From: Cyanobacteriota bacterium
GTDB taxonomy: Bacteria; Cyanobacteriota; Cyanobacteriia; Thermostichales; Thermostichaceae
Reading direction: 5' to 3'
Assembly: GCA_033764955.1 (NCBI GenBank)
Contig: JANRIL010000003.1
Coordinates: forward strand, 1 to 25,320
Length of the DNA: 25,320 nucleotides
Shown piece by piece: positions 337 to 25,320 of the stretch; within the stretch, counting starts at the first letter, position 1; every line of letters begins with the position of its first letter. The notes under the pieces were generated by a model that saw only the letters and a program-made list of their open reading frames with translations, did not search any database and was not told the DNA's origin. The translations under genes were made by a program, and so were the position numbers.

Positions 337-351
337 CAAAGCAACCGGAGT

Positions 352-1619: not shown

Positions 1620-1680
1620 ATCATCGCCTACCTAATACTGGTCAAGCCGCTAGATCATTCCCTATCTCACGCTAGTCCGA

Positions 1681-8492: not shown

Positions 8493-8533
8493 ATTGATGA
8501 CGACAGAAATCCTGCACCTGAAATATTTCTACT

Positions 8534-9742: not shown

Positions 9743-9747
9743 GGGTC

Positions 9748-9987
9748 ATGGTCAGTGTGACGGATCCCCTAGTTATGGATCTGAGAGGGATCCCTTGTCC
9801 CCTCAACTTTGTCAGAACCAAGCTGAAATTGGAAAAGCTGGCGGTCGGGGATCACTTAGAGGTTTGGCTGGATGCGGGAGAGCCGATCCAGCAGGTTCCC
9901 GATAGCCTGAGGGTGGCAGGGCACCATATTCATAAGCTAGAGGAGCAGCCGGAAGGATTTTTTGTCCTGGTTGTGGAGCGAGGATAA
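9748..9987 (+). CDS. TusA/SirA-family sulfur carrier protein
   Basis: DLRGIPCPLNFV motif; 79 aa. Confidence 0.88.
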   Translation: MVSVTDPLVMDLRGIPCPLNFVRTKLKLEKLAVGDHLEVWLDAGEPIQQVPDSLRVAGHHIHKLEEQPEGFFVLVVERG

Positions 9988-9991
9988 AATC

Positions 9992-11068
9992 ATGCCTCTT
10001 GCCACGCAGACGGGTTGGGTATTGGGTTGGGTGCAGGCAGTACAGGCTAATTTTTATCGGGTGAGACTGGTGGGGGATCCCTATCAAGCGAGGGGGCAGG
10101 ATATTTGGTGTACTCGCCGTGCCCGCCTGAAAAAGTTGGGGCAGCAGATTGTAGTAGGGGATCGGGTGCAGGTGAGTGTGGCGGCTAGGGATAGCCAAGG
10201 GGTGATCGAAGCCGTTTTAGCCCGTGAGAGCTTTTTACCCCGTCCGGCCATAGCCAATGCCGACCAAGCGTTGTTGGTGTTTGCCCTGCGAGAGCCACCG
10301 CCGGAAGCAACCCACTTAAGCCGATTTTTGGTACAGGCGGAGAGCAGTGGTCTCACGGTCTGCCTGATATTTAACAAGTGTGACCTGGTGGATGAGCCTA
10401 TCCAGCAGCAATGGCAGGAGCGGATCGGGCAGTGGGGGTATGATCTGCACCTGATTAGCGCCAAAACAGGCATGGGGATCCCACGATTGCGAGCATCTTG
10501 TCAGGATCGCATCTCGATTGTGACAGGGCCTTCTGGAGTAGGAAAATCTAGCCTCTTAAACCGTCTTTTGCCGGATCAGCAGTTGCTCACTCAAGCGGTT
10601 TCTGGGCGGTTGCGCCACGGTCGCCATACTACCCGCCATGTAGAATTATTTGCGTTAAATGAGAGTAGCTGGATTGCCGACTCACCGGGATTTAATCAGG
10701 TGGAGCGATTTTATTGCTCTGCCGAGGGATTGATGCAAGCTTTTCCTGAAATTCGTCCTCATTTGGGATCCTGTCAATTTCGCAACTGTCTACATCAGCA
10801 GGAACCGGGCTGCCAGATTCGCCCATTGCCGTGGGAGCGCTATCCCATTTATCAAGAACTGTTGCGGGAGGTGATCCAACAGGAACCGCAGGATGGAATG
10901 GTGCTCTCAGAGCCGACAGGCTCCTCCGAACCGTCTTCCCCTCGAGCAGCGGCTAAGCCTTCTCCTCCCCATTTGCCCACTCACTATCGCCACCGCTCCC
11001 GCCGCCAAGAACGCCAACGATTGCGAGCCTGGTCGGTGGATGACCTGACGGATGCCAGTGAAGGGTAA
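9992..11068 (+). CDS. rsgA: Ribosome small subunit-dependent GTPase A
   Basis: Circularly permuted GTPase motifs NKCD, GPSGVGKSS, GRHTT, DSPG and a C-terminal CQFRNCLHQQEPGC zinc site. ATG at 9992. Confidence 0.93.
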   Translation: MPLATQTGWVLGWVQAVQANFYRVRLVGDPYQARGQDIWCTRRARLKKLGQQIVVGDRVQVSVAARDSQGVIEAVLARESFLPRPAIANADQALLVFALREPPPEATHLSRFLVQAESSGLTVCLIFNKCDLVDEPIQQQWQERIGQWGYDLHLISAKTGMGIPRLRASCQDRISIVTGPSGVGKSSLLNRLLPDQQLLTQAVSGRLRHGRHTTRHVELFALNESSWIADSPGFNQVERFYCSAEGLMQAFPEIRPHLGSCQFRNCLHQQEPGCQIRPLPWERYPIYQELLREVIQQEPQDGMVLSEPTGSSEPSSPRAAAKPSPPHLPTHYRHRSRRQERQRLRAWSVDDLTDASEG

Positions 11069-11118
11069 GGGGAGCAGGGTAGGATGGGGAAGATATTGGC
11101 ACGGATCCCCTAGCAGCA

Positions 11119-12225
11119 ATGGCAAATGGTAATTCTTTCGGCATCCTCTTTAGCGTGACCACCTATGGAGAGTCCCACGGTGGGGCGATTGGAGTGGTGG
11201 TGGATGGGTGTCCACCCCGCCTCCCCCTCACGCCAGAGGAGATTCAACAGGAATTGGATCGCCGTCGCCCCGGTCAAAGTCACATCACCACCCCCCGCCA
11301 AGAAAGTGACCGCTGCGAGATTACCTCCGGCTTATTTGAGGGGAAGACAACGGGTACGCCCATTCACATCATGGTGCGTAATCAGGATGCCCGTTCCCAG
11401 GACTATAGCGAGATGGAGCAAACCTTTCGTCCCTCCCACGCCGATGCCACCTATGAAGCCAAATACGGGATCCGCAACTGGCAGGGGGGAGGACGAGCCT
11501 CAGCGCGGGAGACCATTGGGCGGGTGGCAGCGGGGGCGATTGCCAAAAAGATCCTGCGGCTCGCGGCTGAGGTGGAGATTTTGGCCTACGTCAAGCGGGT
11601 GCATAAACTGGAGGCCATAGTGGATCCTGCTCAGGTGACGGCGGCAGCGATTGAGTCTACCCTTGTGCGGTGCCCCGATCCCGATATGGCGGCACAGATG
11701 ATCCAGGCGATTGAACAGGCTGGGCAGGCAGGAGACTCGTTAGGGGGCGTGGTGGAGTGTATAGCCCGCCGCGTGCCACGAGGATTGGGATCCCCTGTCT
11801 TTGACAAATTGGAGGCGGATCTGGCAAAAGCTGTCATGTCGTTGCCCGCCAGCAAAGGCGTGGAGGTGGGATCCGGTTTTGCGGGAACCTATCTGACGGG
11901 CAAAGAGCATAACGATGAATTTTTTATGCAGGGAGAGACTTGGCGCACCCTCACCAACCGCTCTGGCGGTATTCAAGGGGGAATTTCTAACGGCGAAGAT
12001 ATTATCCTGCGGGTGGCCTTCAAACCCACCGCCACGATCCGCCAGGAACAAAAAACCGTCACCCGCTCCGGCACAGAAACCCTTCTAGCCGCCCGTGGCC
12101 GCCATGATCCCTGTGTGTTGCCCAGGGCTGTGCCGATGGTGGAAGCGATGGTGGCTTTGGTGCTCTGTGATCACCTGCTGCGGCAACAGGCTCAGTGCCA
12201 GACGTTGGTTTTTGGGGAGGGTTGA
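11119..12225 (+). CDS. aroC: Chorismate synthase
   Basis: [31 protein letters not shown] and GRHDPCV motifs. Confidence 0.97.
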
Positions 12226-12240
12226 TCTCCAGGGATCCCC

Positions 12241-13281
12241 TCAACTGTTGTCAGCCAAGATAGCGGCGTTTAACTTCTCCACTTGTTGTTCCAGTTGCCT
12301 GACTTTTTTGAGTAGATCGGGCAGGTTGCGCTCGATAGCAACCAGGCGTCGCCATTGGGCTGCCGATTGATGGGGATAGCCAGAAACCGTTTCTCCCGCT
12401 GCCACAGAGCTAGTGATGCCCGTTTGTCCCGTGGCGATCACCCGATCCCCGATCGTGATGTGACCGACAATGCCCACTTGTCCTGCCAGGATGACATGGT
12501 TACCCAACTGGGTACCCCCGGCAATCCCTACCTGCGAGACAATCACACAATGGGATCCCATTTTGACCCCATGCCCAATCTGCACTAAGTTATCAATCTT
12601 TGTCCCTCGGCCAATGCGGGTTTCTCCCACGGCAGGGCGGTCGATGGTGGTGTTGCTCCCCACATCCACATCGTCTTCTAGCACCACATGTCCCGACTGC
12701 ATCATGCGATACCAGCGTCCGTCCGCTTGGGGCACATGACCAAACCCATCATCCCCGATCACCGCTCCACTGTGGATGAGGCAGCGATGGCCAATGATCG
12801 TCCGTTCATGGATCACACAATTGGCAAACAACTGACAGCCTTCCCCAATCTGCACCTGCGGATAAATCGTGACATTGGCGTGGATGTGCGTATGGCTGCC
12901 GATCACCACCCCCGCCCCCAACACCACATGGCTGCCAATGGAAACCTGCTCTCCCAGTTGCACATCAGGGGCGATGACTGCCGTCGGGTGAATGCCCAGG
13001 GGGGGCTGATAGGGCTGATAAAACAGTTCGATAGCTTGGGCAAAGGCCAGTCGTGGATCCCTTGCCCGCAAACAAGCTATTGGAGGGGGAGCCACCGTTT
13101 TTTCATCCAAAACGAGAGCGCTGGCTTGGGTTTGTTCCAGCAAGGGCAGATATTTGGGATCGCTAACAAAGCTCAATTGCCCCGGCTGAGCCTCCCCCAG
13201 CGCGGCTACCCCCGTAATCTCTAGGGTGGGATCCCCTTCCAGCGCAAGATGGAGGCGTTGGGCAATAGTCTGAAGCTGCAT
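12241..13281 (-). CDS. lpxD: UDP-3-O-acyl-glucosamine N-acyltransferase
   Basis: Hexapeptide repeats, GDDGFG, TIDR and KIDNLVQIGHGV. Confidence 0.95.
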   Translation of the reverse strand: MQLQTIAQRLHLALEGDPTLEITGVAALGEAQPGQLSFVSDPKYLPLLEQTQASALVLDEKTVAPPPIACLRARDPRLAFAQAIELFYQPYQPPLGIHPTAVIAPDVQLGEQVSIGSHVVLGAGVVIGSHTHIHANVTIYPQVQIGEGCQLFANCVIHERTIIGHRCLIHSGAVIGDDGFGHVPQADGRWYRMMQSGHVVLEDDVDVGSNTTIDRPAVGETRIGRGTKIDNLVQIGHGVKMGSHCVIVSQVGIAGGTQLGNHVILAGQVGIVGHITIGDRVIATGQTGITSSVAAGETVSGYPHQSAAQWRRLVAIERNLPDLLKKVRQLEQQVEKLNAAILADNS

Positions 13282-13358
13282 AGGTTGGAAGGGGGAAAGA
13301 CGGGTTCAGCCAATTAAGATATTAAGATACTGGGTAGAGATGGGGGTAGTTTTCGGGG

Positions 13359-13898
13359 ATGAGTGGGATCCCGACGATTCGCATAGCCAATCTGGAGGAT
13401 GCTGAGCTACTAACTGGGCTGGCACGGCAAACCTTTCAAGAGACGTTTGGGGCACAAACTCACCCCCAGGATTTGGCGCTCTACCTCCAGCAGTCCTTTC
13501 ATCCTCGCCAACAACAGCAGGAATTAGCGGATCCCCTCACCATTACTCTATTGGTGGAGGTGGCGGAGCAGACTGTGGGCTATGCCCAGTTACGAGTGGC
13601 AGATACCCCTGCTTGCATTCAGGGCAACCATCCGCTGGAAATTGGCCGAATTTATCTGTTACAAGCCTGGGTCGGACGTGGCCTTGGCAACCTTTTGATG
13701 AAAACCTGCCTGGAGGCCGCCCAGATGAGCGGATTTCAGACGGTTTGGCTGGGGGTTTGGGAACATAACTATCTGGCACAAGCATTTTATGAAAAATGGG
13801 GGTTTTGCAAGGTCGGAGAACATATTTTCCCGGTAGGAAACGACCCTCAAGTGGATTGGCTGATGCAACGGTCTTTAGAGCCTGTCATCCATTCATAG
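13359..13898 (+). CDS. GNAT N-acetyltransferase (PaiA-like)
   Basis: RIYL..GRGLG acetyl-CoA motif and VWLGVWEHN..AQAFYEKWGF. Confidence 0.88.
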   Translation: MSGIPTIRIANLEDAELLTGLARQTFQETFGAQTHPQDLALYLQQSFHPRQQQQELADPLTITLLVEVAEQTVGYAQLRVADTPACIQGNHPLEIGRIYLLQAWVGRGLGNLLMKTCLEAAQMSGFQTVWLGVWEHNYLAQAFYEKWGFCKVGEHIFPVGNDPQVDWLMQRSLEPVIHS

Positions 13899-14013
13899 CT
13901 AGTAACACTGCGGATCCAACTGCTCTACTTTCCTTCTTTGCCTAGGAGGGATGGGTTCATCCACAGGGGATAGCATCCTGAGCTGACGTTCAATAACCGT
14001 GGAGACTATCCTT

Positions 14014-14275
14014 GCTGTCTAACCGGCTTTTTGGGAATCTCAGGCGGCGATGCCATGGAGATTACCTCTAGAAAATGGCTGAGCTTTGCCGTCTAAAACA
14101 CTGAATCGGGGTGTTATGGCATAGATCTCGCGGCTAGTATACTTTAGATGGGTATTAAACTGCGCTTGGCTGTCTAATACTTCGTTGGGTATCTTAGACC
14201 CCAAGGATAGCCCACCTCATTGGCAAAATTGCCGAGGTTTGCCGTCTCATAGGCTAAATCGGATGATTAGACTGA
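14014..14275. repeat. Array of four degenerate ~35-bp palindromic units, period 72-81 bp
   Basis: GCYGTCTMA-N16/17-(TTAGAC-like) units start at 14014, 14088, 14169 and 14241. Units 1+2 and 3+4 align as a diverged ~154-bp tandem duplication. Confidence 0.55.
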
Positions 14276-14368
14276 ATTATTCTTGAGTACAACGCCCCCA
14301 CATCTGGTATTGGAGCACGTTTGTCAATCTAAACTGACCTAAACAGAAGAATTAGGCTGCAACTTGCA

Positions 14369-14387
14369 GTTTAATAACTGGTTAGCT
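14369..14387 (+). other. attI-like recombination site, left boundary of the cassette array
   Basis: GTTTAAT-AACTG-GTTAGCT: degenerate inverse core, 5-bp spacer and GTT core. GTTAGCTGGC (14381-14390) is the exact reverse complement of GCCAGCTAAC (16501-16510) at the first attC. Confidence 0.6.
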
Positions 14388-14444
14388 GGCTTTGATTCTG
14401 GGTTGTGACAGTTCTGTCATATCCTTCACTGCATAGGTTCAATG

Positions 14445-15242
14445 CTATTCCTCCGTTTCACTAGCTTGATTAAGGAAAAAGCTAGTCACTATCTGGTTTA
14501 GCAGATCATGAGGATCTGAGTTAGTGCTGGCTGCAATTTGCCTAAGTCTGGAAATGTTATCTGAAGATAGACGGAGTGGAGCAAACCGTTCAGGAAAAGC
14601 CCAACTACATATCTCGCACTCTAATTGACATCCACGACACGATGTACTTTTGAAATTATTGCACTCATCACAAAGGGGTTGCCAATTGCTTAGTTCGTTA
14701 CCTCCGCCTCTAGTGCGCGGGATCTTGTGGTCTTGCTGAAAACGAACTTCTGGCTCAGATCGGTTACATACCGGACATCTATGTTGATAAGTGTCTAGGA
14801 TTCTTAGCCAGTCTAGATCAGAAAGTTTAATTCGTGGCACTCTCTTTTCACTCAAGGATAAGCTCACAAGCTGGTATGTTTTACCTTCTCTACCGATTCC
14901 GGTAATGCCTTCCTCGCCTTGTAATTCTCGCAACCGCCGAAAAACGTCTATATAAGGTTTATAGGGTTGGGTGCCTAAATGCTGATTTCTTCTGAAGCGG
15001 TTAATCGCTTCTCTCAGTTCTTCCTCTTCAACACGCGGACCTGGAATACCATGCCCCGCAGGCCACAGTTCTTCTAAAAGCACTCGATAGTAGGACTTAT
15101 TCGCCTCACTGGGACATACAAATTTTTGACAAACTTCCTCAATCCAGACTTCTCGGTTGATGTTTCCTGGCACTTCCTGCTCACTTACAGGTGCAAGAGG
15201 TAAAAACTTTTGTCGCCCACGGCTTTTCCGCTCGGTTGCCAT
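14445..15242 (-). CDS. HNH endonuclease, putative restriction enzyme
   Basis: CPVC...DHKIP..RGG.N..SNWQPLCDECNNFK HNH motif followed by CRGC..CEIC; divergent from a C5 methyltransferase. Confidence 0.8.
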   Translation of the reverse strand: MATERKSRGRQKFLPLAPVSEQEVPGNINREVWIEEVCQKFVCPSEANKSYYRVLLEELWPAGHGIPGPRVEEEELREAINRFRRNQHLGTQPYKPYIDVFRRLRELQGEEGITGIGREGKTYQLVSLSLSEKRVPRIKLSDLDWLRILDTYQHRCPVCNRSEPEVRFQQDHKIPRTRGGGNELSNWQPLCDECNNFKSTSCRGCQLECEICSWAFPERFAPLRLSSDNISRLRQIAASTNSDPHDLLNQIVTSFFLNQASETEE

Positions 15243-15475
15243 TAGTTATCTCCCCGTAGTAGCCAGATGGGGTCGATATCCAACACCTTGGAGATGGCAT
15301 CAAGTTCATAATCTTTCAGAGATCTGACTTGACGCTCAATCTCTGAGATGTCGGACTGTTCTAGCTTGATTCCATAATCAACATTGAGAGCGGCGGCTAA
15401 TTCAACCTGGTCTAAATTATTTTTCAGCCTTACCTGACGAATTCTTGCTCCACTGATATTTTGCTTGTCTCCCAT
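15242..15475 (-). CDS. XRE-family HTH regulator (controller/C-protein-like)
   Basis: IGARIRQVR-type start and QSDISEIER helix. GAGG RBS before ATG 15475. The stop overlaps the HNH start (TAATG). Confidence 0.82.
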   Translation of the reverse strand: MGDKQNISGARIRQVRLKNNLDQVELAAALNVDYGIKLEQSDISEIERQVRSLKDYELDAISKVLDIDPIWLLRGDN

Positions 15476-15526
15476 AGCTAACACCTCAACCTCATAGTGA
15501 GATGTTATTTAAGAGAGAATTGATTC

Positions 15527-15545
15527 GTAGACGATTTCCGTCTAC
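15527..15545. promoter_or_regulatory. Candidate operator in the divergent controller/MTase promoter region
   Basis: Perfect inverted repeat GTAGACG-ATTTC-CGTCTAC. Confidence 0.4.
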
Positions 15546-15611
15546 AGTAGCTTTTAGGAACTAAATCATTTATGATTAGCCCCATTATCAGACCCTGTAT
15601 CTAGTTTTGAT

Positions 15612-16520
15612 ATGCGTGTCTCCTCCTTCTTCGCTGGCATTGGCGGCTTTGATCTTGGCTTTGAAAGAGCAGGGATGAATGTCGTATTTCAATGTGAAAT
15701 AGATCCTTTTTGCCAACAAATCCTTAAGCGCCACTGGCCACATATCCCCTTACATGAAGACATCACAACCCTCGACCCAACAACTATCCCTCCCTCTGAC
15801 TTGTGGTGTGCCGGATGGCCTTGCCAAGACCTCAGCACTGCCAACACAGATCGCCCAGGACTTGCTGGAAAGCGAAGTGGTCTATTCTTCGCGTTTATGG
15901 ACTTGGTTAGAGAAGTTCATCCAGCGTGGTTGGTCATGGAAAATGTGCCGGGGCTACTCTCCGCAGAGCAAGGAACCGCTCTTGAAACAGTTATCGACAC
16001 GCTCGAAGAGAATGGGTATTTGGGGGGATGGGTATCGTGTAACGCTGTCCATTCGGGCTTACCCCATAATCGAGACAGAGTGTTCTTTGTCGCAAGTTTT
16101 AGATCGGAACGTGCCTATCACTTCTTTACTGACAGTCGCGAATTGTCTGGGGATACTACGTCGAGAGAATCGAGCAAAACGCAAACTAGATCCAATTTTC
16201 GTCAAGGCACTCTCGGAGACAATCCGCTTGTGGTACAACGTCGCGGCGGCTTCGGGTACACCATGGCAAAAAGCATCTGCCCCACGTTACGTGCCCAAAC
16301 TGGAGGACATCAAGGAGGTCATTCAGACAGACCAATACTCTGTGGCGAGAAACTTGACGTGGACAGAGTGGGAGAGGCTTATGGGGTTTCCTCCCGGATG
16401 GACGGTCGTCGAGGGAGACTCCTTGGCAATGCTGTCGTCCCCGCAATTAGCGAATGGATCGGAAGACGAATCTTAGAAATTGAAATGATGTCAGATGCCA
16501 GCCAGCTAACAAGTCGATGA
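15612..16520 (+). CDS. DNA (cytosine-5) methyltransferase, alpha polypeptide (lacks motif IX)
   Basis: Motifs I FAGIGG, IV GWPCQD, VI ENVPG, VIII PHNRDRVF and X LGNAVVP are present; no R.LT..E..RL.GFP in this frame. The stop codon lies inside attC1. Confidence 0.92.
   Translation: MRVSSFFAGIGGFDLGFERAGMNVVFQCEIDPFCQQILKRHWPHIPLHEDITTLDPTTIPPSDLWCAGWPCQDLSTANTDRPGLAGKRSGLFFAFMDLVREVHPAWLVMENVPGLLSAEQGTALETVIDTLEENGYLGGWVSCNAVHSGLPHNRDRVFFVASFRSERAYHFFTDSRELSGDTTSRESSKTQTRSNFRQGTLGDNPLVVQRRGGFGYTMAKSICPTLRAQTGGHQGGHSDRPILCGEKLDVDRVGEAYGVSSRMDGRRGRLLGNAVVPAISEWIGRRILEIEMMSDASQLTSR
15754..16476 (+). CDS. DNA (cytosine-5) methyltransferase beta polypeptide, overprinted in the +1 frame
   Basis: 240-codon open frame inside the alpha gene containing RNLTWTEWERLMGFPPGWT (motif IX) and ECSLSQVLD, which resembles M.EcoHK31I beta as I recall it. 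True start uncertain. Confidence 0.8.
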   Translation: MKTSQPSTQQLSLPLTCGVPDGLAKTSALPTQIAQDLLESEVVYSSRLWTWLEKFIQRGWSWKMCRGYSPQSKEPLLKQLSTRSKRMGIWGDGYRVTLSIRAYPIIETECSLSQVLDRNVPITSLLTVANCLGILRRENRAKRKLDPIFVKALSETIRLWYNVAAASGTPWQKASAPRYVPKLEDIKEVIQTDQYSVARNLTWTEWERLMGFPPGWTVVEGDSLAMLSSPQLANGSEDES

Positions 16521-16589
16521 AGCGGACGGTCGATAGATCTCGGTGAAAAGGCAAAGGTTATCTGCCGCCGCTTATCTTGGTCGTTAGAC
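16504..16589 (+). other. attC site 1 (86 bp)
   Basis: R'' AGCTAAC, then GATGAAGCGGACGG pairing with CCGCCGCTTATC with two extrahelical bases, then R' GTTAGAC. Confidence 0.9.
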
Positions 16590-16753
16590 CTCAATCCCTG
16601 GGCGGGGTAGTAGCTTGGGGGCGATCGGGTATTGTTGTAGTGAAGTCACATTTTCTGTTCCATCGCTCATTGCACTCCAAACTTTACAAAAAACCGACCT
16701 TTTGGTCGGAAGAGAGTGGAGAGGATTTCTGGGATTTAATTAGCTTGAAGCCT

Positions 16754-16999
16754 TTAACCAAGCAATCTGATCTGAACAATTAGAACTCCGACAATACCTG
16801 ATGCAGCGATCGCGAATAAGAGGTTAGTGAAGCGCCGACCTGCTTTGGGGTTCAACCCCAAGATCTTATCTTCCTGTCCCGCAGTGAATAGTAAAGACCA
16901 AGATTGAGTAGCGTTGATAAGCTCGAAGGTGTTGAAAGCAGGTCTGAAAATAACGGAACCGAACAAGCTGGGATTTCTGAAGTCAAAGTCAGTGATCAT
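16754..16999 (-). CDS. Small hypothetical membrane protein
   Basis: 81 aa with a C-terminal hydrophobic helix; AGGA RBS; directly downstream of the Psb34-like gene. Confidence 0.6.
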   Translation of the reverse strand: MITDFDFRNPSLFGSVIFRPAFNTFELINATQSWSLLFTAGQEDKILGLNPKAGRRFTNLLFAIAASGIVGVLIVQIRLLG

Positions 17000-17046
17000 T
17001 GTGATTCCTTGGATAGGGCTGATCGTGAGATTGTAAGAGAGATGCC

Positions 17047-17403
17047 CTAGCTAACAGAAAAAGCAATCAATCCAGTCAGGGTGACTAGCAGGGCAGCAAT
17101 CGCCCCTTGAAAAACGTAGCGGCGTTGTGCTTCAGGCGTAGGATATCCGGCAAAATACATCGCAGGCTCAATGGAGTAGGCATTGACGAGTCCCTCATCG
17201 TCTACGGTATAGCCAGCCATCTGAGGTGCATCCGGCAATTGACCACCATTACGGTGTATCTTGGCTTGCACCTCTGCGGGAATTAGCTCACTGCCATCAC
17301 TATAGTGACGTACCTCAGTCTCCGAGATTTTCTCTAGAGCAGCGATCTCAGCGATGCGCTCCTGGAGGGTAAGAGCAGTTTTTTCTTTGTTGATGGTGTA
17401 CAT
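17047..17403 (-). CDS. Psb34/Ssl1498-family PSII assembly protein, N-terminally extended
   Basis: C-terminal YTVDDEGLVNAYSIEPAMYFAGYPTPEAQRRY plus one TM helix ending AFSVS matches the family pattern. ATG 17403 follows an AGGA RBS. Confidence 0.75.
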   Translation of the reverse strand: MYTINKEKTALTLQERIAEIAALEKISETEVRHYSDGSELIPAEVQAKIHRNGGQLPDAPQMAGYTVDDEGLVNAYSIEPAMYFAGYPTPEAQRRYVFQGAIAALLVTLTGLIAFSVS

Positions 17404-17624
17404 TCTGTGTTTCCTGTTTCTCTTGGACATCCTTAATGTAACATGTTTTTGCAAAATATTGTTTTTCTGCTTGTTAACTGAGATAATGAAAAGTTTTAAT
17501 AAATTTAGTTTTTGTGTTACACTCTCTCAGAAAGTCATTCCAGACTGCTAAAATCCATTAGGCAACGGCACAATCTCGCTTGACTTTAAGACAGACGGCT
17601 CTTACCTGAGAAGGGGGCTAGCAT

Positions 17625-18089
17625 GTGCAGGAATATACGATCGAGCGTTCCGTGGAGGTAGACATCACTTGTTCGGTAGAGGAGGTTTACAATCTCTGGG
17701 AGAATTTGGAGAATGTGCCGCGTTGGATCCCCCTTGTAAAGGAAGTCAAGGTTTTACCTGGTTCTGAACAGCTATCGCGCTGGAAGTTTGGGCTGGGGGC
17801 ACCTCTACTGACCGAGTGGACTTCGCGCATTACCCAACGCATTCCCATGCAGTTAATTGCTTGGGAGTCAGTCTCTGGTTTGCCAAACCATGGCTGTGCC
17901 CAGTTCTTCCCAACTGATCGAGGGTGTCGTTTACGCCTTAAGCTTGCCTTCAATCTACCAGGGGGAATTGTGGGTACACTGATTAAAGGTATTGGAGTAG
18001 AACGCTGGTTAGAAGCCAATCTGGTAGAGAGCTTGAAACGGTTTCAAACTCTGATCGAAGAAGAGGTGCTTCGCAAAGCAGTCAGATAA
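17625..18089 (+). CDS. SRPBCC/START-family (polyketide cyclase-like) protein
   Basis: VEEVYNLWENLENVPRW, WTSRIT..IAWESVSGLPNHG and a C-terminal LKRFQTLIE helix. Confidence 0.85.
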   Translation: MQEYTIERSVEVDITCSVEEVYNLWENLENVPRWIPLVKEVKVLPGSEQLSRWKFGLGAPLLTEWTSRITQRIPMQLIAWESVSGLPNHGCAQFFPTDRGCRLRLKLAFNLPGGIVGTLIKGIGVERWLEANLVESLKRFQTLIEEEVLRKAVR

Positions 18090-18167
18090 ATAGGTTGACA
18101 GGATGTGGAAAACTACTGCCTATCTGTCCATAGAATCATTATCACTTCTGCACCTGTAGCGTGAACG

Positions 18168-18255
18168 GTCTAACAACCGCGCTGCACCGGAACGCTCCAA
18201 TACAGTCGGTTGGGTGGCAAAGTTTATCTGCGTCCGGTGAGCACGACCGTTAGCT
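18168..18255 (+). other. attC site 2 (88 bp)
   Basis: R'' GTCTAAC, GCTGCACCGGAACGC pairing with GCGTCCGGTGAGC, then R' GTTAGCT. Confidence 0.92.
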
Positions 18256-18357
18256 GGCTTCGTTTGATCGGTTGGGGTGTTCTCAAGAGGCGATTTGTCA
18301 TGGCAAGAGTTAATATCTGCAGAGCAAGTTATTTGTGATGACCGAGAGGCTGAGTTT

Positions 18358-19401
18358 ATGTCACAGACCTACACCCCTACCTCAATTTCTCCTGAACTAG
18401 TGCATCGCCTTCGCGCCATGCCAAAAGCAGAGATTCACGTTCATATTGAGGGAGCAACAGACGCAGAGACGTTTTACCAAATGGCGCAGCGAAACCAAGT
18501 GGAGTTACCAGCAGACTCACTGGAGGAGTGGAAATCATTTTTTGAATTTCGCGATTTTCCCCATTTCATTCAGGTTTATGCAGCAGCGGTTCAGTGCTTA
18601 CAAACGCTAGAAGACTATGCACTGATGATTGAACGGTTCTACAAGCGTCAAGCTGAGGAAAACATTCTCTATACGGAAGCCTTCTTGAGTGCATCATTTC
18701 TGACTCAAAAGTTTGAGGATCAAGAAATTTTGAATGCGATCGCGGTGGGGTGTGCGACGGGAGAAGCCAAATATAGCTGTCAAGTGAATTTGATTCCTGA
18801 TATTGCGCGTGAAATTCCTGACTCTCAACATCGCGTTCTAGAATTTGTCATGAAAGGGAAAGAACGCGGATTATTTATTGGTTTAGGAGTTGGAGGACTT
18901 GAAATTGGATATCCACCAGAATTGTTCACAGAGACTTATGTAGAAGCTCACCGACAGGGGCTTAAAGTTGTTGCTCATGCGGGTGAAGCTGTTGGAGCAG
19001 AGAGTATTTGGGGTGCGGTAAATACCTTGAAAGCCGAACGCATTGGACATGGCATTCGATGTTTAGATGATCCAAATTTGGTTGAGATGCTCCGTCAGCA
19101 TCGGATTCCGTTGGAAGTGTCACCTCAAAGCAACTACTGTTTAGGGGTTGTGGCACAAGAGCAACCTCACCCAATCCGCAGAATGGTCGATACTGGGCTT
19201 TATTGCACCGTCAACTCGGATGATCCAGCCATGTTTTCAACGAGTTTGACCAATGAGTATTTGACACTTGCGAAACAAGGATTTAGCTGGGAAGAATTGT
19301 GGCAACTCAACCTGAATACCTTAGAAGCGACGTTTTTAGGTGAAGCGGAAAAGGGTAAATATCGTGTGGAGTGGGAGAAATTCATACGAACAGCCAGCTA
19401 A
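18358..19401 (+). CDS. add: Adenosine/adenine deaminase
   Basis: PKAEIHVHIEG, HAGE, RIGHG and NSDDP motifs. ATG 18358 follows GAGAGG. The TAA stop lies within R'' of attC3. Confidence 0.88.
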   Translation: MSQTYTPTSISPELVHRLRAMPKAEIHVHIEGATDAETFYQMAQRNQVELPADSLEEWKSFFEFRDFPHFIQVYAAAVQCLQTLEDYALMIERFYKRQAEENILYTEAFLSASFLTQKFEDQEILNAIAVGCATGEAKYSCQVNLIPDIAREIPDSQHRVLEFVMKGKERGLFIGLGVGGLEIGYPPELFTETYVEAHRQGLKVVAHAGEAVGAESIWGAVNTLKAERIGHGIRCLDDPNLVEMLRQHRIPLEVSPQSNYCLGVVAQEQPHPIRRMVDTGLYCTVNSDDPAMFSTSLTNEYLTLAKQGFSWEELWQLNLNTLEATFLGEAEKGKYRVEWEKFIRTAS

Positions 19402-19482
19402 CAATTTGGTTGGAGCGGATGTAAGATGCCTTTCCGTCTATCGTTCGAGTCTGTTCGTCACCGCTCAACCGGAACGTTATAC
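19396..19482 (+). other. attC site 3 (87 bp)
   Basis: R'' AGCTAAC, GGTTGGAGCGG pairing with CCGCTCAACC (one extrahelical G), then R' GTTATAC. Confidence 0.88.
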
Positions 19483-19600
19483 GGCACCGCACGAGCATCT
19501 GATTTTTAACCACAGCGAGATTATATTTCCTTCGGAAAGCCCCTAATAATCTTGCAGATGATATCGTTTCAATATCAGTTAAAACTCATAAATAGGGAAA

Positions 19601-22600
19601 ATGAAATTGATTAAAACTGATTGGGGTATATTTAAAGCAAAGTTCTCAGCAAATCCACAAAATGCTTTTGAGTGGATGTGTTATCTCCTTTTCTGCAATG
19701 AATTCAGCGTGAAAACTGGCATTTTTCGCTATAAAAACCAATCGGCTATGGAAACCAATCCAATTTCCTCAAATGGAGTTAATGTTGGTTGGCAAGCTAA
19801 ATTTTATGACGCCGCATTATCTAGCCATAAAAATGACATACTAGAAACGATTACAAAAGCAAAACGTGATTACCCTGATTTAAATAAAATAATTTTTTAC
19901 ACAAATTCAGAGTGGGGCCAAAACAAAGGAAAGGAACCACAAGGAAAAATAGAAGCAGAAAAAATAGCAAAAACAAACAACCTAGGAATTGAATGGAGAT
20001 GTTGTAGTTTTTTCGAATCACCGTTTGTTGTTGATGAATGTAGCCGGATCACTTCGTACTTCTTTACTCAATCTGATAATTTATTTGGACTTTTGGAGTC
20101 GTTCGAGTCTCATACAGGTGCAATTCTGGACGATATTGAAACTGCTATAACTTTTGGCGACCAAGATGTTTCAATCAATCGCTCTAATATTATATCTGAA
20201 ATTGAAAAGTCAGATGCTAGCGCGTTAATTATAAGTGGCAAAGGCGGCACGGGAAAAACAGCCTTGATAAAAGAGCTGTATGGAGACAAAGGAAAAAATG
20301 ATGCTTTTTATGTCCACAAAGCGACAGAATTTTCTGTTAGTAGCTTGAATGTATTTTTGTCAGGTGTTTTTCTAAAAGATTTTATTGGAGCACATGAAGG
20401 AGCTGACAATAAAACAGTTGTTATTGACTCTGCTGAACACTTGCTTGCTTTGGAAAATACTGATCCTATTAAAGAGTATCTATCCAATTTAATCAAAGCT
20501 GGATGGAGGGTGTGGTTCACCACGAGAAATACCTACCTAAATGATTTAATTTTTCAGCTATATGAAGTATACAAAATTAGCTTTAAGTCGGTGCATCTAG
20601 AAAACCTGAATGAATATACATTATTCGAACTTGCCAAAAAGCATAATTTTGTCATCCCTGTTGACAAAAGGCTCAAAGCGCTCATATTGACTCCATTTTA
20701 TCTTAGGGAGTATTTGAAGCATTACCAAGACAACAAGGGCGCAAGCTACTTTGAATTCAAAGATTTTTTATGGCCAAGAGTCATTGCGAAACGATCCCCG
20801 CAACGAGAACAATTTTTCATACATCTTGCTAAAGAAAGAGCTAATTCAGGAAGGTTTTTCGTTAATCCAGATCATAGCTACTCAAATGAAGCGGTAGAAA
20901 AATCGTTGGTTTCCGATGGAATAATTAGCTATGAGTCTACTCGCGGTTATTTTATTACTCATGATATATATGAAGAATGGGCACTTGATAAATTCGTTGA
21001 GAGTAATTATTTATCCTCAGAAAATGCTGAAATATTTTTTGATAGAATACAACAGTCTTTGCCCATAAGAAGGGTTTTCAGGCGGTGGCTATCAGAGAAA
21101 CTTAGTGCGGCCAATGAAGAAGTTAGCCATCTTATTGTAGAAACCTTGTCGTCTCACAAAGTATCTAATTTGTGGAAGGATGAAGTGCTAGTTTCCATGC
21201 TTCTATCCGACTATTCCGATTATTTTTTTGCCGTTAATAAAAATTTACTATTGGAAGACGATTTCAGACTTCTAAAACGGATATGCTTGTTGATACGAAT
21301 AGGATGCAAAGAGATAGATAATAGTATTTTTGATAGACTTGGAGTGAGAACGCCAGATATTTTATCAATGGAATATATAATAACCAAGCCGAAAGGAAAC
21401 GGGTGGAAATCGCTTATCAAGTTCATCAATGACAATCTCGAAAAGATAGGTGTTAATAATCTCAGTTTTGTATTGCCCGCCCTCTACGACTGGAACAGCC
21501 ACAACAAGTCTGGCGACGCAACTAAATATTCCAGCCTAATTGCATTATCGTTTTACAAATCGGTAATCGAAAACAACGTCTATATTAGGGATGATGGTTT
21601 TTCCAAGGAGTTAATCCTTACCATTTTGTATGGGGCAGGTGAAATTAAAAGTGAACTTGAAGCTATCATTGATGAAATTATTCTAAAAAATTGGAAGCGA
21701 CATAACGATCCATATCATCTAATGAGTGAATTCATTTTAACAAAAATGGAATACTTTAATGTTGCTATTGAAATTCCGAAAAAAGTGATTGCTCTAGCTA
21801 AATGCCTTTGGGTGTATGAACCACCAAAAAACGACAATTATTTTTATGGATCAAGACTAGAGATAGATCATGAATTTGGTGTTGAGAATGGACATCAAGA
21901 CTATTATCCCGCCAGTGCTTATCAAACACCCATATACGCCCTGCTGAAAGCCAATTTAGAATTAACATTAAACTTCATTACCGACCTAATTAATTATGCT
22001 TCAAAAAAATATGCAGAATCCAGCCTTGATAAGGGCCTGGTTGAAACGGCAACACTATTACTAGATGATGGGAAGAAAATTGATCTGCCTATTTCAAACC
22101 GTCTTTGGTGCATGTACCGAGGAACACAGGTAAACCCTGATTTACTTGAATCAATATTAATGTCTCTAGAACGCTTCTTTCTTGAGAGAGGAAAAAATAC
22201 CAAATCTGAAACACTTGAATTTTATCTAAATTATATTCTAACAAGATCTGAATCTTCTGCGCTCGTGGATGTTGTTGCAAGCATAGTATGTGCTTTTCAC
22301 GAGAAAACATTTAATGTAGCCAAAACTCTATTCAGGACAAAAGAATTTTTCTTCTATGACACATCTAGAATGATGTTGGATCAAACACATAAAACTCAAC
22401 TTACTTCGCTCAAAAATTTTAGCATCAACCGGATGAATGAGCTTCATGAGAATGAAAGGATAAGTGCCTGCGATCAAAAACATCGAAAAAAATCACTAGA
22501 AAATATAGCGCTTCAGTATCAGTTTTTCAGGGCAGAAGAAGTGAGCGAAGAAGAATCTGAGAAAAGGCTTCGAGAAATTTGGGATATTTGGGATATTCAC

Positions 22601-24322
22601 TACAAAAACTTACCGGGGAAAGAACTAGAAAATCATCGCGATAAAACTTGGCGTCTATATTTAGCCCGTATGGACAAAAGGAAAATGTCGCTTGAAACCA
22701 AAGAAGTTGAAGATGGCATAACAATTGAATTCAATCCGGAAATTGATCCAGAGCTTAGGGAATATAGTGAAAAGTCTCAGCGAGAAGCGAGCAAGCATTT
22801 TGCACATTCCGGTTTAAAGATTTGGGCCGATAGTAGGCTCTATAATAGAGATGAGTACAAAAAATATGCGTCTTATGAAAATGATCCATTGACTGCTTTG
22901 AGTGAGGCACAAGAAATATGGAATCAACTTTCAGAAGGCAACGTGACGGAGGAATTACAGTTTGATCGAGCTACACCATCGTATGTGTGCGCCGTGCTAT
23001 TGCGAGACTTTAAAGGAAAGTTAGGTAAAACCGAGCTGGAATTTTGCAAGGAAGTCATATTTGAATACGCAAATATTGTTAACAATAATGATTACATGCA
23101 CCAGATCGGCGATGGCTTTGTTCCTGCGTTATTTGTACTCCCAAGATTGATAGATGATTTTCCGGAAGAAAGACTAACTATCAAGTTGCTATTAATCAAA
23201 GCGCTATTGAGGCATGACCCAATAACGATGATGGGAGTGGACAGGATAAATTCAGTAGCCATTCAAGCTGTTCTGCACTTATGGAAGAATAAACCAGATT
23301 TCATGAAGTCGCTGTACATTGGGTATTTGGTAATTGCTCAAAAACATAGAGACGTTCAGGACCGTTTAAGACAAGAGGCATATAAACAGCACAAATATGA
23401 AATTGATAACAATGACTTTGAGCGGGAGTTATTGAAAGAATTAGAGAGTGTAGCAAAGAGTATCGAAGATGAAACCATCACGGAATCCGTAATAGACAAC
23501 ATTGAAAGCATAGATAACGACATATTGATAACTGCTTTTCAGCTTGCACCATTGGATGGCGAACACAATAAAACAGTGCCGTTTGTCGAGGATATTATTA
23601 GAATAATTTCACAGCAATTGCTTTCACCAGACAGAGAAGACCGGCTTAATTATACTCTCAGATATGAATTTTTAAAGCACTATGCCCGTTTTATCCTGCA
23701 TATAGGGAATAGCGAGAAGGACAAATACCTTAAATATTTTACCGATAATTTCACCTTGAGTGAAGGCATGGCAGATTTGTTAAATGAATTTGTTAGCGCT
23801 GAAGACTCATTGAATATACCAGACTCATTTTGGTATGTTTGGAATCGATTTAAAGACCATATCGTTGATTCAATAAATAGCCAAGGTTGGAGGCATGATA
23901 AAGAACGTATAATCGAATCCTTTTTATTTGGAAGAGTCCCTTGGAAGGATGAAGCAATGACATGGCATACATTTTCACCGGAGAATAAAGCATTTTTTGA
24001 TGACCTAAGTGGCAGGATCGGTGGTGAGCCTTCTTTTATTTATAGCATTAGTAAACTCCTTTGTGGCATTGGAAGTGAATTTTTAGATGATGGTATTTAC
24101 TGGATCAGTAACGCAATTAATACTTTTTATATTGATATATCAAAGCATAAATCAGGTAATACTATATTTTATTTGGAGAGATATATGAGAAGGTATTTAT
24201 TCAAAAATCATGACAAAGTTAAACGAACACCAAATTTACGGGCAAAGTCAATGGTGGTTCTGGATTTCCTGGTTGAGCAATATTCAATTACTGGTTATCT
24301 CCTAAGAGAAGATTTAGCCTAG
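19601..24322 (+). CDS. avs4: AVAST type 4 antiviral STAND NTPase/nuclease Avs4
   Basis: N-terminus W..FKAKFS.NPQ..FEW.CYLLFC.EF...GIFRYKNQS..ETNPI...GWQAKFY matches the Avs4 Mrr-like nuclease domain as recalled. Walker A GKGGTGKT, Walker B VVIDSAE, long helical C-terminus, 1573 aa, AT-rich. Confidence 0.88.
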   Translation: MKLIKTDWGIFKAKFSANPQNAFEWMCYLLFCNEFSVKTGIFRYKNQSAMETNPISSNGVNVGWQAKFYDAALSSHKNDILETITKAKRDYPDLNKIIFYTNSEWGQNKGKEPQGKIEAEKIAKTNNLGIEWRCCSFFESPFVVDECSRITSYFFTQSDNLFGLLESFESHTGAILDDIETAITFGDQDVSINRSNIISEIEKSDASALIISGKGGTGKTALIKELYGDKGKNDAFYVHKATEFSVSSLNVFLSGVFLKDFIGAHEGADNKTVVIDSAEHLLALENTDPIKEYLSNLIKAGWRVWFTTRNTYLNDLIFQLYEVYKISFKSVHLENLNEYTLFELAKKHNFVIPVDKRLKALILTPFYLREYLKHYQDNKGASYFEFKDFLWPRVIAKRSPQREQFFIHLAKERANSGRFFVNPDHSYSNEAVEKSLVSDGIISYESTRGYFITHDIYEEWALDKFVESNYLSSENAEIFFDRIQQSLPIRRVFRRWLSEKLSAANEEVSHLIVETLSSHKVSNLWKDEVLVSMLLSDYSDYFFAVNKNLLLEDDFRLLKRICLLIRIGCKEIDNSIFDRLGVRTPDILSMEYIITKPKGNGWKSLIKFINDNLEKIGVNNLSFVLPALYDWNSHNKSGDATKYSSLIALSFYKSVIENNVYIRDDGFSKELILTILYGAGEIKSELEAIIDEIILKNWKRHNDPYHLMSEFILTKMEYFNVAIEIPKKVIALAKCLWVYEPPKNDNYFYGSRLEIDHEFGVENGHQDYYPASAYQTPIYALLKANLELTLNFITDLINYASKKYAESSLDKGLVETATLLLDDGKKIDLPISNRLWCMYRGTQVNPDLLESILMSLERFFLERGKNTKSETLEFYLNYILTRSESSALVDVVASIVCAFHEKTFNVAKTLFRTKEFFFYDTSRMMLDQTHKTQLTSLKNFSINRMNELHENERISACDQKHRKKSLENIALQYQFFRAEEVSEEESEKRLREIWDIWDIHYKNLPGKELENHRDKTWRLYLARMDKRKMSLETKEVEDGITIEFNPEIDPELREYSEKSQREASKHFAHSGLKIWADSRLYNRDEYKKYASYENDPLTALSEAQEIWNQLSEGNVTEELQFDRATPSYVCAVLLRDFKGKLGKTELEFCKEVIFEYANIVNNNDYMHQIGDGFVPALFVLPRLIDDFPEERLTIKLLLIKALLRHDPITMMGVDRINSVAIQAVLHLWKNKPDFMKSLYIGYLVIAQKHRDVQDRLRQEAYKQHKYEIDNNDFERELLKELESVAKSIEDETITESVIDNIESIDNDILITAFQLAPLDGEHNKTVPFVEDIIRIISQQLLSPDREDRLNYTLRYEFLKHYARFILHIGNSEKDKYLKYFTDNFTLSEGMADLLNEFVSAEDSLNIPDSFWYVWNRFKDHIVDSINSQGWRHDKERIIESFLFGRVPWKDEAMTWHTFSPENKAFFDDLSGRIGGEPSFIYSISKLLCGIGSEFLDDGIYWISNAINTFYIDISKHKSGNTIFYLERYMRRYLFKNHDKVKRTPNLRAKSMVVLDFLVEQYSITGYLLREDLA

Positions 24323-24448
24323 CTAAAAAACTTTGTGGCCGAGGTTTACCGAATAACCAAAGGCCTAAATCAAATACGAAGAATATATTATTTGTAGTTT
24401 GTGTCGCTCCTATCCATATGCTGATAAATGGCGACATATTTATGTGCC

Positions 24449-24520
24449 GTATAACAAGTTGCTGCACACGGATAAATTACTCGCTGTGCTCCTAATTTAC
24501 CGATGAGCAAAGCGTTAGTC
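24449..24520 (+). other. attC site 4 (72 bp)
   Basis: R'' GTATAAC, TTGCTGCACACGGATAAATTA pairing with TAATTTACCGATGAGCAA, then R' GTTAGTC. Confidence 0.92.
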
Positions 24521-24600
24521 CGCTTGAATTGTCAGTGATGACTTAGAATGGTATGACTCGTAAGCTATAGGATTTAGAGAGTCATAAGCTGAGAAGAAAT

Positions 24601-25242
24601 ATGCATCCACAGGATACAGCCACTCGATACAATCACATTGCCCAATGGTGGCAAACTCAGCATCAAGGCTCGCTTTATGGTATCGCACAGTTAGAGCAGG
24701 CCATCAAATTTACTACTAAAAAACAATCAGCTATTGATATAGGGTGCGGAAGCAGCGGACGTTTTATTAAAGTCTTAAGCGAACATGGATTTCAAGCGGA
24801 AGGACTTGATATTTCCGAGGAAATGATTGATTTAGCTAAACAACTGCATCCAGGCGTCACCTTTTACTGGTCAGACATCTGCTGCTGGAACCCTTCCAAA
24901 TCCTACAACTTGATTGTTGCTTGGGATAGCACGTTTCACCTGCCGCTAGATATGCAAGAACCTGTCACGAAAAAGCTATGCAATGCTCTTGAACCTGATG
25001 GGGTGCTTATGTTTACCTGTGGAGGTGGATACAGACAAGATGAGGTATCTGGAACATTTCAAGGTCAAGACTTTGAGTACAGCACGTTGGGCGTAAATGC
25101 TTTCTTAAAGATTCTAATTGAGCAACATTGTACTTGTCTTCACGTCGAATACGATCAATATCCTGAGAACCATGTTTACATACAGCCTATTCGACGATTA
25201 GCTAGTACAGTAACAGCACTTGGTAAACCAGTTTCTGAATGA
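24601..25242 (+). CDS. Class I SAM-dependent methyltransferase; 3' end replaced by IS sequence
   Basis: IDIGCGSSG, GLDIS and AWDSTFHLP motifs. Native sequence appears to end at HVYI (25182); the last 19 residues are read from the IS end. Confidence 0.85.
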   Translation: MHPQDTATRYNHIAQWWQTQHQGSLYGIAQLEQAIKFTTKKQSAIDIGCGSSGRFIKVLSEHGFQAEGLDISEEMIDLAKQLHPGVTFYWSDICCWNPSKSYNLIVAWDSTFHLPLDMQEPVTKKLCNALEPDGVLMFTCGGGYRQDEVSGTFQGQDFEYSTLGVNAFLKILIEQHCTCLHVEYDQYPENHVYIQPIRRLASTVTALGKPVSE

Positions 25243-25320
25243 TGCCTTCTCTACCAAATATAGTGCGATCTCTATCAGCTTTTCTATGCTTTCCATCCCC
25301 CTAGAAGGAAACAGTCGGAC
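25181..25320 (-). mobile_element. IS630-family element end with transposase C-terminus (partial)
   Basis: Minus strand 25320-25198 reads VRLFPSRGMESIEKLIEIALYLVEKASFRNWFTKCCYCTS*, matching the NWFTxCCYCTS ending of cyanobacterial IS630 transposases. The boundary is at a TA (25181-25182). Confidence 0.78.

Follow-up and report, generated by a model that had tools for sequence, protein, structure and literature searches.

How does a run of integron cassettes come to stand beside ordinary chromosomal genes of a cyanobacterium, at a place that encodes no integron integrase (IntI)? The question is raised by a 25,320-bp stretch of DNA (hereafter the window), which is one whole draft contig, C12, of the genome of a member of the Thermostichaceae (GCA_033764955.1, contig JANRIL010000003.1). 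The source genome is a draft of 48 contigs and 3.80 Mb with an estimated completeness of 89%; it holds 11 matches to phycobilisome families, for which only Synechococcus elongatus among 14 named control genomes was also positive. We describe here the recombination (attC) sites of this locus and their orientation, the borders and the cargo of its cassettes, and the integrases that the genome encodes elsewhere. Very probably, positions 14381-25180 are an attC-site cluster that has no integrase of its own (CALIN) in the cyanobacterial chromosome, with recombination supplied in trans. Such an element is defined by at least two clustered attC sites on one strand and no IntI within it; the window holds four such sites and no IntI, with one gap of 4957 bases that exceeds the published 4-kb rule.

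The attC sites were located with a covariance model built from 37 attC sites of the same genome, none of them in the window, and run with its filters off. It returned four sites, all on the plus strand (Table 1; the E-values are rough), and over the whole window nothing else scored above 12 bits except the minus strands of these four, with no site at 13900-14380 or beyond 24525. An earlier note on this DNA, made from its letters alone, had proposed four co-oriented attC hairpins; these are the four sites, and the coordinates it gave (16504, 18168, 19396 and 24449) fall inside their R'' boxes. A seed scan of the genome for AAC...GTT pairs with paired arms gave 36 matches against 18 in a shuffled control, and a profile search, built in a second step on the scan matches outside the window, recovered from the genome a homogeneous family of elements of 80-100 bases. 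The 19-pair structure laid over the 37-site alignment was written by hand, since bulges and shifts in the alignment kept RNAalifold to 10 pairs. It pairs 87.6% of the cells against 72.3% in shuffles and shows 106 two-sided changes against 36.9, none of 500 shuffles reaching the observed values, while slid controls all drop to 28-53% paired. Under plain folding, not every one of the four window sites takes the canonical hairpin. A genome scan by minimum-free-energy folds in which the R-box pairs were forced recovered just one of the four window sites and was dropped as too strict.

The ends of an attC site are an inverse core R'' (RYYYAAC) and a core R' (GTTRRRY), and crossover takes place at G|TT. 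Each of the four window sites has TAAC and GTTA boxes, the bases before AAC fitting RYYY only loosely (e.g. AGCTAAC), together with an imperfect hairpin that includes an L box and an unpaired spacer, and with extrahelical bases on the top-strand AAC arm. Two such bulged bases stand six pairs from each other, the one a G in 33 and the other an A in all of the 37 model sites, and they are placed alike in the window and in the arrays that adjoin integrases. Top-strand extrahelical bases on the AAC arm, the six-pair spacing and a conserved bottom-strand T are also features of the sites treated in the available part of Nivina et al. (PMC5027507). Terminal complementarity is symmetric and hence by itself silent on orientation; the orientation of the array is set by the asymmetry of the model scores between the strands and by the bulged bases. 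The array reads left to right, and an integrase would be expected left of 14381. Sites 1 to 3 belong to a family whose sequence and structure are kept throughout the genome and in many cyanobacterial genomes. attC4 is shorter than the host sites, is of a different sequence family and was missed by nhmmer; it is kept in the copies of its cassette in Vreelandella and Geitlerinema. Its first bulged base on the top strand (within 24456-24470) is G in the window and in Geitlerinema, as in the host family, and C in Vreelandella, in a comparison of three copies of which the two cyanobacterial ones may have one common ancestor.

The cassettes delimited by these sites carry matching sequence at their ends. 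The start of cassettes 1 and 3, GTTAGCTGGCT at 14381 and 18249, has its partner AGCCAGCTAAC at 16500 and 19392; that of cassette 2, GTTAGACC at 16583, is partnered by GGTCTAAC at 18167, and that of cassette 4, GTTATACGGCAC at 19476, by GTGCCGTATAAC at 24444. A fifth boundary, GTTAGTCC, lies at 24514. Between each cassette start and its own R'' the perfect complementary runs are 11, 8, 11 and 12 bases long for cassettes 1-4, and cuts at G|TT yield cassettes of 2202, 1666, 1227 and 5038 bp. The earlier note had given the same sizes, the same motif positions and the same runs for cassettes 2 to 4; its 10 bases for cassette 1 have to be read as 11. The pattern extends through the genome. In 32 adjacent attC pairs, the cassette start matches its own downstream R'' over at least 8 bases in 15, and the R'' of the same (upstream) site in none; against unrelated sites, 2.6% of 2432 comparisons give such a match. 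Recombination at G|TT is expected to leave a hybrid-site signature of this form.

Independent copies define the same borders. Cassettes 1, 2 and 4 recur in other samples or genomes at 88-98% identity, and the homology of these copies ends at 14381, 16583/16587, 18252, 19475/19476 and 24514-24518. Contigs of four public sequencing runs, of samples other than the source sample and none holding half or more of the sampled words, were compared with 13500-25320. In run X3 one contig spans 14381-16587 (cassette 1, 95 differences) and another 16583-18252 (cassette 2, 55 differences). Both are flanked by unlike DNA on either side, so the two cassettes are separate there and sit in other contexts. The word depth of these contigs is about 315-320, and that of a contig of the same run with a homologue of the cassette 5 methyltransferase about 12; in run X3 cassettes 1 and 2 sit in a far more abundant organism or in many copies. 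At the left junction, the homology of the X3 contig with cassette 1 begins exactly at 14381. For cassettes 1, 2 and 4 the G|TT borders are proved by their independent copies, and gene gain or loss at other boundaries, which the earlier note had named among the findings that would speak against an array, was not seen in them.

Table 1. Features of the array and its surroundings (positions in the window; model scores are those of the covariance model).
Feature	Position	Strand	Basis or remark
GNAT acetyltransferase, last gene before the array and outside it	13359..13898	+	Pfam, NCBIfam
Left junction G|TTAGCTGGCT, start of cassette 1	14381..14391	+	no attC or attI upstream
Cassette 1, predicted three-gene type II restriction-modification unit, 2202 bp	14382..16583	+	G|TT borders, covariance model
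HNH endonuclease, candidate type II restriction enzyme	14445..15242	-	PF14279, PF01844; PADLOC REase_II, E 2.8e-11
Helix-turn-helix (HTH) controller (C) protein	15242..15484	-	PF01381; PADLOC Control_protein, E 1.5e-5
C5 cytosine DNA methyltransferase	15612..16520	+	PF00145; PADLOC MTase_II, 180 bits, residues 2-290; TIGR00675, 148.5 bits
attC1	16499-16594	+	86.7 bits, E 1.6e-20; minus strand 16.1 bits
Cassette 2, three genes, 1666 bp	16584..18249	+	G|TT borders, covariance model
81-aa protein	16754..16999	-	no family match (Pfam, PADLOC, NCBIfam); followed by a terminator-like hairpin, 16709-16694
Psb34-like protein	17047..17454	-	NF033486, 79.3 bits (cut-off 45); only the C-terminal 53 residues match
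SRPBCC / polyketide-cyclase-fold protein	17625..18089	+	PF03364, PF10604
attC2	18163-18260	+	73.4 bits, E 4.9e-17; minus strand 19.9 bits
Cassette 3, 1227 bp	18250..19476	+	G|TT borders, covariance model
Adenosine deaminase	18277..19401	+	TIGR01430, 263 bits (cut-off 216.55); PF00962
attC3	19391-19487	+	60.6 bits, E 1.1e-13; minus strand 13.8 bits
Cassette 4, 5038 bp, G+C 36.3%	19477..24514	+	G|TT borders; copies with the same ends
Predicted full-length Avs4 (AVAST type 4), 1573 aa	19601..24322	+	NF041815, PADLOC
attC4	24444-24525	+	26.3 bits, E 1.1e-4; minus strand none up to E 10
Cassette 5, 5' part: SAM-dependent methyltransferase (open reading frame from 24601)	24515..25180	+	Pfam Methyltransf_23/25/11
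Multicopy insertion sequence, left end (TACAGCC...)	25181..25320	+	contig breaks here

Two intact IntI genes are encoded on other contigs, at C9:19-960 (minus strand, 463 bits) and C38:63588-64529 (plus strand, 451 bits), both well above the 265-bit cut-off of the integron integrase family TIGR02249 and free of stops; the alignment of the C9 protein with VchIntIA, the integrase of Vibrio cholerae (PDB 2a3v, E 4.6e-92), runs from end to end. From each of the two genes an array of the same attC family extends outward, with seven sites at C9:1689-7948 (plus strand) and four at C38:54045-61836 (minus strand), and the window's sites share the orientation that these arrays have relative to their integrases. 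An inverted repeat that ends in TA|GTTAG is common to the attI regions of C9 and C38. The starts of C4 and C9 overlap by 141 bases at 100% as reverse complements; thus the 3' end of the C9 integrase continues into C4, and the C9 integron adjoins C4. Decayed IntI fragments were seen at C36:180-860 (two TAG stops), on C4, at C30:655-831 and at C38:182627-182934; those on C36, C30 and C38, some with in-frame stops, indicate at least one further, dead integron in the genome. C12 gives no IntI-like match down to E 0.001, and none is seen on C7, a contig onto which the array probably extends; GNAT, lpxD and aroC lie upstream of the first cassette, where a complete integron has intI and attI. The assignment as a CALIN was already made in the earlier note, and the four plus-strand sites and the lack of a TIGR02249 match on C12 and C7 bear it out. 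Its statement that no integrase is adjacent is right for the contig itself but could not be read from the window on the right side, because the contig ends there in an insertion-sequence end common to seven contig ends. Its further suggestion, an integrase elsewhere or since lost, holds in its first half, given the two intact genes; the second half is the weaker one.

The attC family is abundant. At E 0.001 or better the covariance model finds 77 sites in the genome, 37 of them its training sites, and with attC4 there are 78. Linked at 6 kb they form 46 clusters, 15 arrays and 31 singletons, spread over many contigs, and many contigs begin or end inside arrays. Adjacent sites are 449-5053 bases apart, with large spacings on C38 (3141 and 3890), C30 (5005) and C11 (3132 and 3243), figures that may be too high where a decayed site was missed. 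Upstream of 5 of the 46 clusters the first R'' has kept an exact complement of 10 bases, against 0.45 per round in a swapped control; most of the scattered sites are therefore not demonstrable as intact insertions. Four isolated sites (C27:18820-18916, C27:112535-112630, C11:33777-33872 and C4:15472-15568) share the 12 bases that follow them, GTTATCGAATTG, which suggests a recurrent insertion target or a common downstream sequence. Of 401 genomes sampled evenly from the phylum, the source genome included, 23 have an IntI over the cut-off and 73 match 13899-19476 somewhere in their DNA; outside the source genome 104 places are listed, of which 71, as counted from the table of places, lie on attC intervals.

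To the left of the array, bases 1-13898 are occupied by ordinary chromosomal genes (dnaJ, two copies of dnaK, a radical-SAM gene, grpE, rsgA, aroC, lpxD and GNAT). The G+C content is 53.4% here, 45.7-47.1% in cassettes 1-3 and 36.3% in cassette 4, and 51.5% in the genome. The 480 bases before the left junction show no similarity to the attI regions beside intI on C9 and C38. The earlier note had advised comparing the locus downstream of GNAT in relatives. Among 30 relatives there is no close orthologue of GNAT (best 38% identity; the set includes no other genome of the genus). Since the closest relatives lack even the GNAT gene, there is no empty site to compare with. Between GNAT and the array lies a 245-base non-coding element (13941-14181) with one copy of 89% identity, also intergenic, at C7:104176-104419. 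Rfam gave no match over the whole window at gathering thresholds and none by E-value over 13850-14450, which includes this element. A repeat of about 95 bases at 241-336, reminiscent of a miniature inverted-repeat transposable element (MITE), has more than 30 copies of 79-97% identity across the contigs of the genome.

On the right, the methyltransferase gene of cassette 5 is interrupted at 25181 by the insertion sequence. Seven contigs, each with a flank of its own, terminate in the 140 bases of 25181-25320 (C12, C6, C25, C26, C27, C30 and C33), and the matching right end (...GCTGTA) terminates five (C1, C2, C3, C46 and C7, the last at its start). An insertion sequence with terminal inverted repeats thus breaks the assembly at no fewer than 12 contig ends, and its interior is absent from the assembly; one copy lies about 500 bases from the intI fragment on C30. 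A 15.8-kb contig of run X3 covers the methyltransferase (24563-25178) and runs on, with 22 of 26 positions agreeing, by eye, with C7 from base 141. Read across a join of C12 and C7, the methyltransferase gene has a frame of 202 aa, which stops 61 bases short of an attC at C7:230; further attC sites lie at 1063 and 3464 of C7. The join through the insertion sequence is probably correct. The array would in that case have seven attC sites and ordinary genes on both sides. C7 carries a 177-aa gene of no assigned family and a reverse-strand gene pair, then an ABC-transporter permease. The pair (C7 1184-3405, minus strand), in a putative cassette of 2.4 kb, encodes a ParA-like ATPase and a Schlafen/AlbA_2-HATPase_c_4 protein, for the latter of which PADLOC gives weak matches to Argonaute-associated proteins; the two may form a further pair of defence genes.

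A mechanism for such an array can be proposed. Each unit is very probably a former circular cassette, starting at the TT of G|TT and ending with its own attC hairpin, and the five units were joined head to tail by integron-integrase recombination. In this process the bottom strand would fold and be cut by the integrase between A and C of AAC, opposite G|TT, and the released circle with its single attC would re-enter at an attI or at another attC. The two intact integrases on other contigs would act in trans to excise and reinsert the cassettes of the window; such action is most likely since both adjoin arrays of the same attC family. The array probably goes on past the insertion sequence onto C7, with three more attC sites and then the ABC-transporter gene.

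How the array was founded is a separate matter; insertion at a secondary GTT site or rearrangement appears most likely. We tentatively favour the former, though at less than even weight, over rearrangement and over loss of an integrase in situ. By this account an integrase inserted a cassette at a chromosomal GTT (attG-type) site that never had an integrase of its own, and the array then grew by attC x attC recombination. It would explain the plain G|TT left junction with neither attI-like nor attC-like sequence upstream, the flanking housekeeping genes, and the presence of 31 singletons and 15 arrays over many contigs, and the secondary-site route and its GWT consensus are published (Loot et al.; preprint 10.1101/2022.09.11.507474). 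However, relatives without GNAT offer no empty site for comparison, and just 5 of 46 clusters keep the 10-base complement upstream. It is doubtful, yet conceivable, that the array is instead a piece of a true integron that was moved or split off at repeats or insertion sequences, or that is still contiguous with one. The contig does end in a multicopy insertion sequence of which another copy lies near the C30 intI fragment, the 245-base repeat stands between GNAT and the array, many contigs start or stop inside arrays, and rearrangement is one of the CALIN origins given by Cury et al. (PMC4889954). But the left side, where an integrase would have to be, is assembled for 14 kb and holds housekeeping genes, and the putative continuation on C7 stops at the ABC-transporter gene after three attC sites, with no IntI match. 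Deletion of the integrase and attI from a complete integron that once stood here is improbable: IntI genes have decayed elsewhere in the genome (C36, C4, C30 and C38:182.6-182.9 kb), but C12 has no IntI-like match at E 0.001 and no attI-like sequence, and the housekeeping DNA upstream is intact. That the repeats belong to another cyanobacterial palindromic repeat or MITE family, with the complementarity as a by-product, is barely credible, for although similar 80-100-base elements in many cyanobacterial genomes (71 of 104 places on attC intervals), the 31 singletons and the lack of an Rfam match would suit it, arrays begin beside IntI genes and are oriented away from them, the sites carry AAC and GTT boxes, two bulged bases six pairs apart and covariation, and the idea is contradicted by R' halves that match the R'' of the next cassette rather than that of the same site and by whole G|TT-G|TT units that recur in other genomes and contexts, which a MITE would not give.

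Some points weigh against a CALIN that is served in trans. The left junction has neither an attI nor a remnant of an attC, and array and integrases lie on separate contigs of a 48-contig draft of 89% completeness. No run covers cassette 3 or 13500-14380, and cassette 3, having no independent copy, is defined by its signature only. Excision, circular forms or joints were not seen in the run contigs, which are not from the source sample and cannot show rare events. The covariance model is home-made and stands in for the attC model of IntegronFinder, and the seed scan was tuned on the sites of the window. The pairing of C12 with C7 is one of several possible between seven left ends and five right ends. 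Finally, the first bottom-strand bulged base is C here and usually G in the attC sites treated in the available part of Nivina et al. (PMC5027507). As a weaker lead, cyanobacterial integrases may use an attC dialect with C in place of G at this position.

The cargo of the CALIN agrees with the view, also taken in the earlier note, that the array is genuine and mixes defence genes (predicted restriction-modification, Avs4) with genes of cyanobacterial type (Psb34-like, SRPBCC, adenosine deaminase). Cassette 1 encodes a predicted type II restriction-modification system with a controller protein. In PADLOC the methyltransferase match is clear, whereas that of the endonuclease (41.6 bits) covers the HNH region only and that of the C protein is weak (23-25 bits). 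The reading frame of the methyltransferase extends into the R'' box of attC1, and the stop codon of the adenosine deaminase gene in cassette 3 falls within the R'' box of attC3. The gene order of cassette 1 recurs in four other cyanobacterial genomes (L050-L053), with 80-84% nucleotide identity in the methylase. The DNA past the methylase stop is unrelated there and the covariance model finds no attC, and thus the restriction-modification unit exists both with and without an attC. More widely, this model, which is tuned to the sites of the source genome, finds no attC beside the restriction-modification, adenosine-deaminase and SRPBCC homologues of other cyanobacteria. In cassette 2 the true start of the Psb34-like gene is probably downstream of the listed TTG. 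The nearest cluster of the 81-aa protein in the Protein Atlas is cyanobacterial and hypothetical (score 0.88, a lead only, all clusters scoring below 0.9). The source genome has no second copy of the cassette genes. Promoter and terminator scans did not rise above shuffled expectation; the reverse-strand genes in cassettes 1 and 2 would need promoters of their own. Cassettes 1-3 carry host-type attC sites and cyanobacterial-type genes.

Cassette 4 is of another kind. It encodes a predicted full-length Avs4 anti-phage NTPase/nuclease, of which residues 7-1572 cover positions 1-1578 of the 1579 of NF041815 (2064 bits, cut-off 1500); PADLOC gives 2181 bits. A protein search of species-representative genomes returned eight loci. 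In four of them, in Vreelandella, Marinicella, Zhongshania and Geitlerinema, the cassette is copied at 88-95% nucleotide identity from 19475/19476 to 24517/24518. Vreelandella sulfidaeris matches 19475-24517 at 91.7% and Marinicella gelatinilytica 19475-24454 at 95%; the match of Zhongshania guokunii runs from 19476 up to its contig end, and that of Geitlerinema sp. P-1104 reaches 24518. Directly upstream of the shared G|TT, Vreelandella and Marinicella have a different attC. The homology of the other four loci, in two Acinetobacter genomes and in metagenome-assembled genomes of Desulfobacterium and Cellvibrio, is limited to about 19562-24339 and takes in the gene but not the ends of the cassette. 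A crude scanner, tuned to the sites of the source genome, found no attC-like site beside the Avs4 genes of Acinetobacter haemolyticus, Desulfobacterium and Cellvibrio, and in A. proteolyticus its nearest match lies about 750 bases beyond the stop codon. An IntI over the cut-off is encoded somewhere in the Marinicella and Zhongshania genomes and in none of the other three searched. Run X1 includes a contig of 5077 bases that shows 98 differences over 19475-24518 (98% identity), and a contig of run X11 starts at 19475. In another seven contigs of run X1 the match is confined to 24445-24518, and hence attC4 belongs to the own site family of the organism in that run. With its low G+C content, its foreign attC and the occurrence of the same cassette with the same borders in gammaproteobacteria, cassette 4 is an import, and it has moved very recently between gammaproteobacteria and cyanobacteria.

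The kind of element described here is already known, as integrons, CALINs and a cyanobacterial attC model are in print (PMC4889954; PMC8352920). Cury et al. (2016; PMC4889954) defined CALINs, reported integrons in Cyanobacteria and clustered sites at 4 kb; in the part of that paper available to us, the largest known cassette measures about 2 kb, and CALINs are attributed to secondary-site insertion, integrase loss or rearrangement. The present array resembles their CALINs in its co-oriented attC sites (two or more) with cassettes, in having no intI nearby and in the associated insertion sequence, and it resembles about half of them in that the genome encodes an IntI elsewhere. It differs in the gap of 4957 bases between attC3 and attC4, which is above the 4-kb default; default settings would therefore probably split off attC4 together with the Avs4 cassette. 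This suggests that surveys with a 4-kb threshold undercount large cassettes. The Cyanobacteria-specific attC model of Ghaly et al. (2021; PMC8352920) was used with the same 4-kb rule. Compared with the taxon-specific attC families treated there, sites 1-3 are of the conserved host type, whereas attC4, of another family, marks an import.

Among integron-borne defence systems, Darracq et al. (preprint 10.1101/2024.07.02.601686) count 783 in cassettes, which are described in the available part of that text as smaller than elsewhere and never of more than two components, and Kieffer et al. (preprint 10.1101/2024.07.02.601719) report defence cassettes in mobile integrons. As in these studies, predicted anti-phage systems including type II restriction occur here as cassettes and the same systems are also found outside integrons. 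In contrast to the streamlined systems described there, whose genes are shorter than elsewhere, the window holds a predicted three-gene restriction-modification unit and a full-length Avs4 of 1573 aa, in a cyanobacterial host rather than in Vibrio. In a search by titles and the openings of abstracts, with the supplementary tables of the preprints outside its scope, we found no paper on Avs-type genes in integron cassettes. New are a full-length Avs4 in a 5-kb cassette, a predicted restriction-modification cassette of three genes, near-identical cassettes in cyanobacteria and gammaproteobacteria, and C for the usual G as the first bottom-strand bulged base. The locus is a clean natural case of an NLR-like defence gene of nearly 5 kb as an integron cassette and widens the presumed cargo of integrons. 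As the G|TT borders of the 5038-bp Avs4 cassette are the same in cyanobacteria and gammaproteobacteria, its copies being 88-98% identical in nucleotides, and as the predicted restriction-modification cassette of three genes belongs to the same array, it is conceivable, if still tentative, that integrons carry full-size, unstreamlined defence genes between phyla and that the ceiling of about 2 kb and the rule of streamlining are in part artefacts of the 4-kb threshold. The cassettes with host-type attC beside an imported one, and the homologues of the restriction-modification unit outside cassettes, provide material on how cassettes are made. The system of Loot et al. (preprint 10.1101/2022.09.11.507474), in which cassettes are inserted at GWT sites across genomes and isolated sites are named SALINs, is matched by the G|TT left junction in ordinary chromosomal DNA and by the many isolated attC sites of the genome. 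It differs, as far as the available part of that preprint shows, in that here at least five cassettes rather than one are involved and in that the present case is known from sequence alone. With two intact integrases, others in decay and about 78 attC sites, of which many stand alone, the source genome is a candidate model for the spread of cassettes outside the integron platform.

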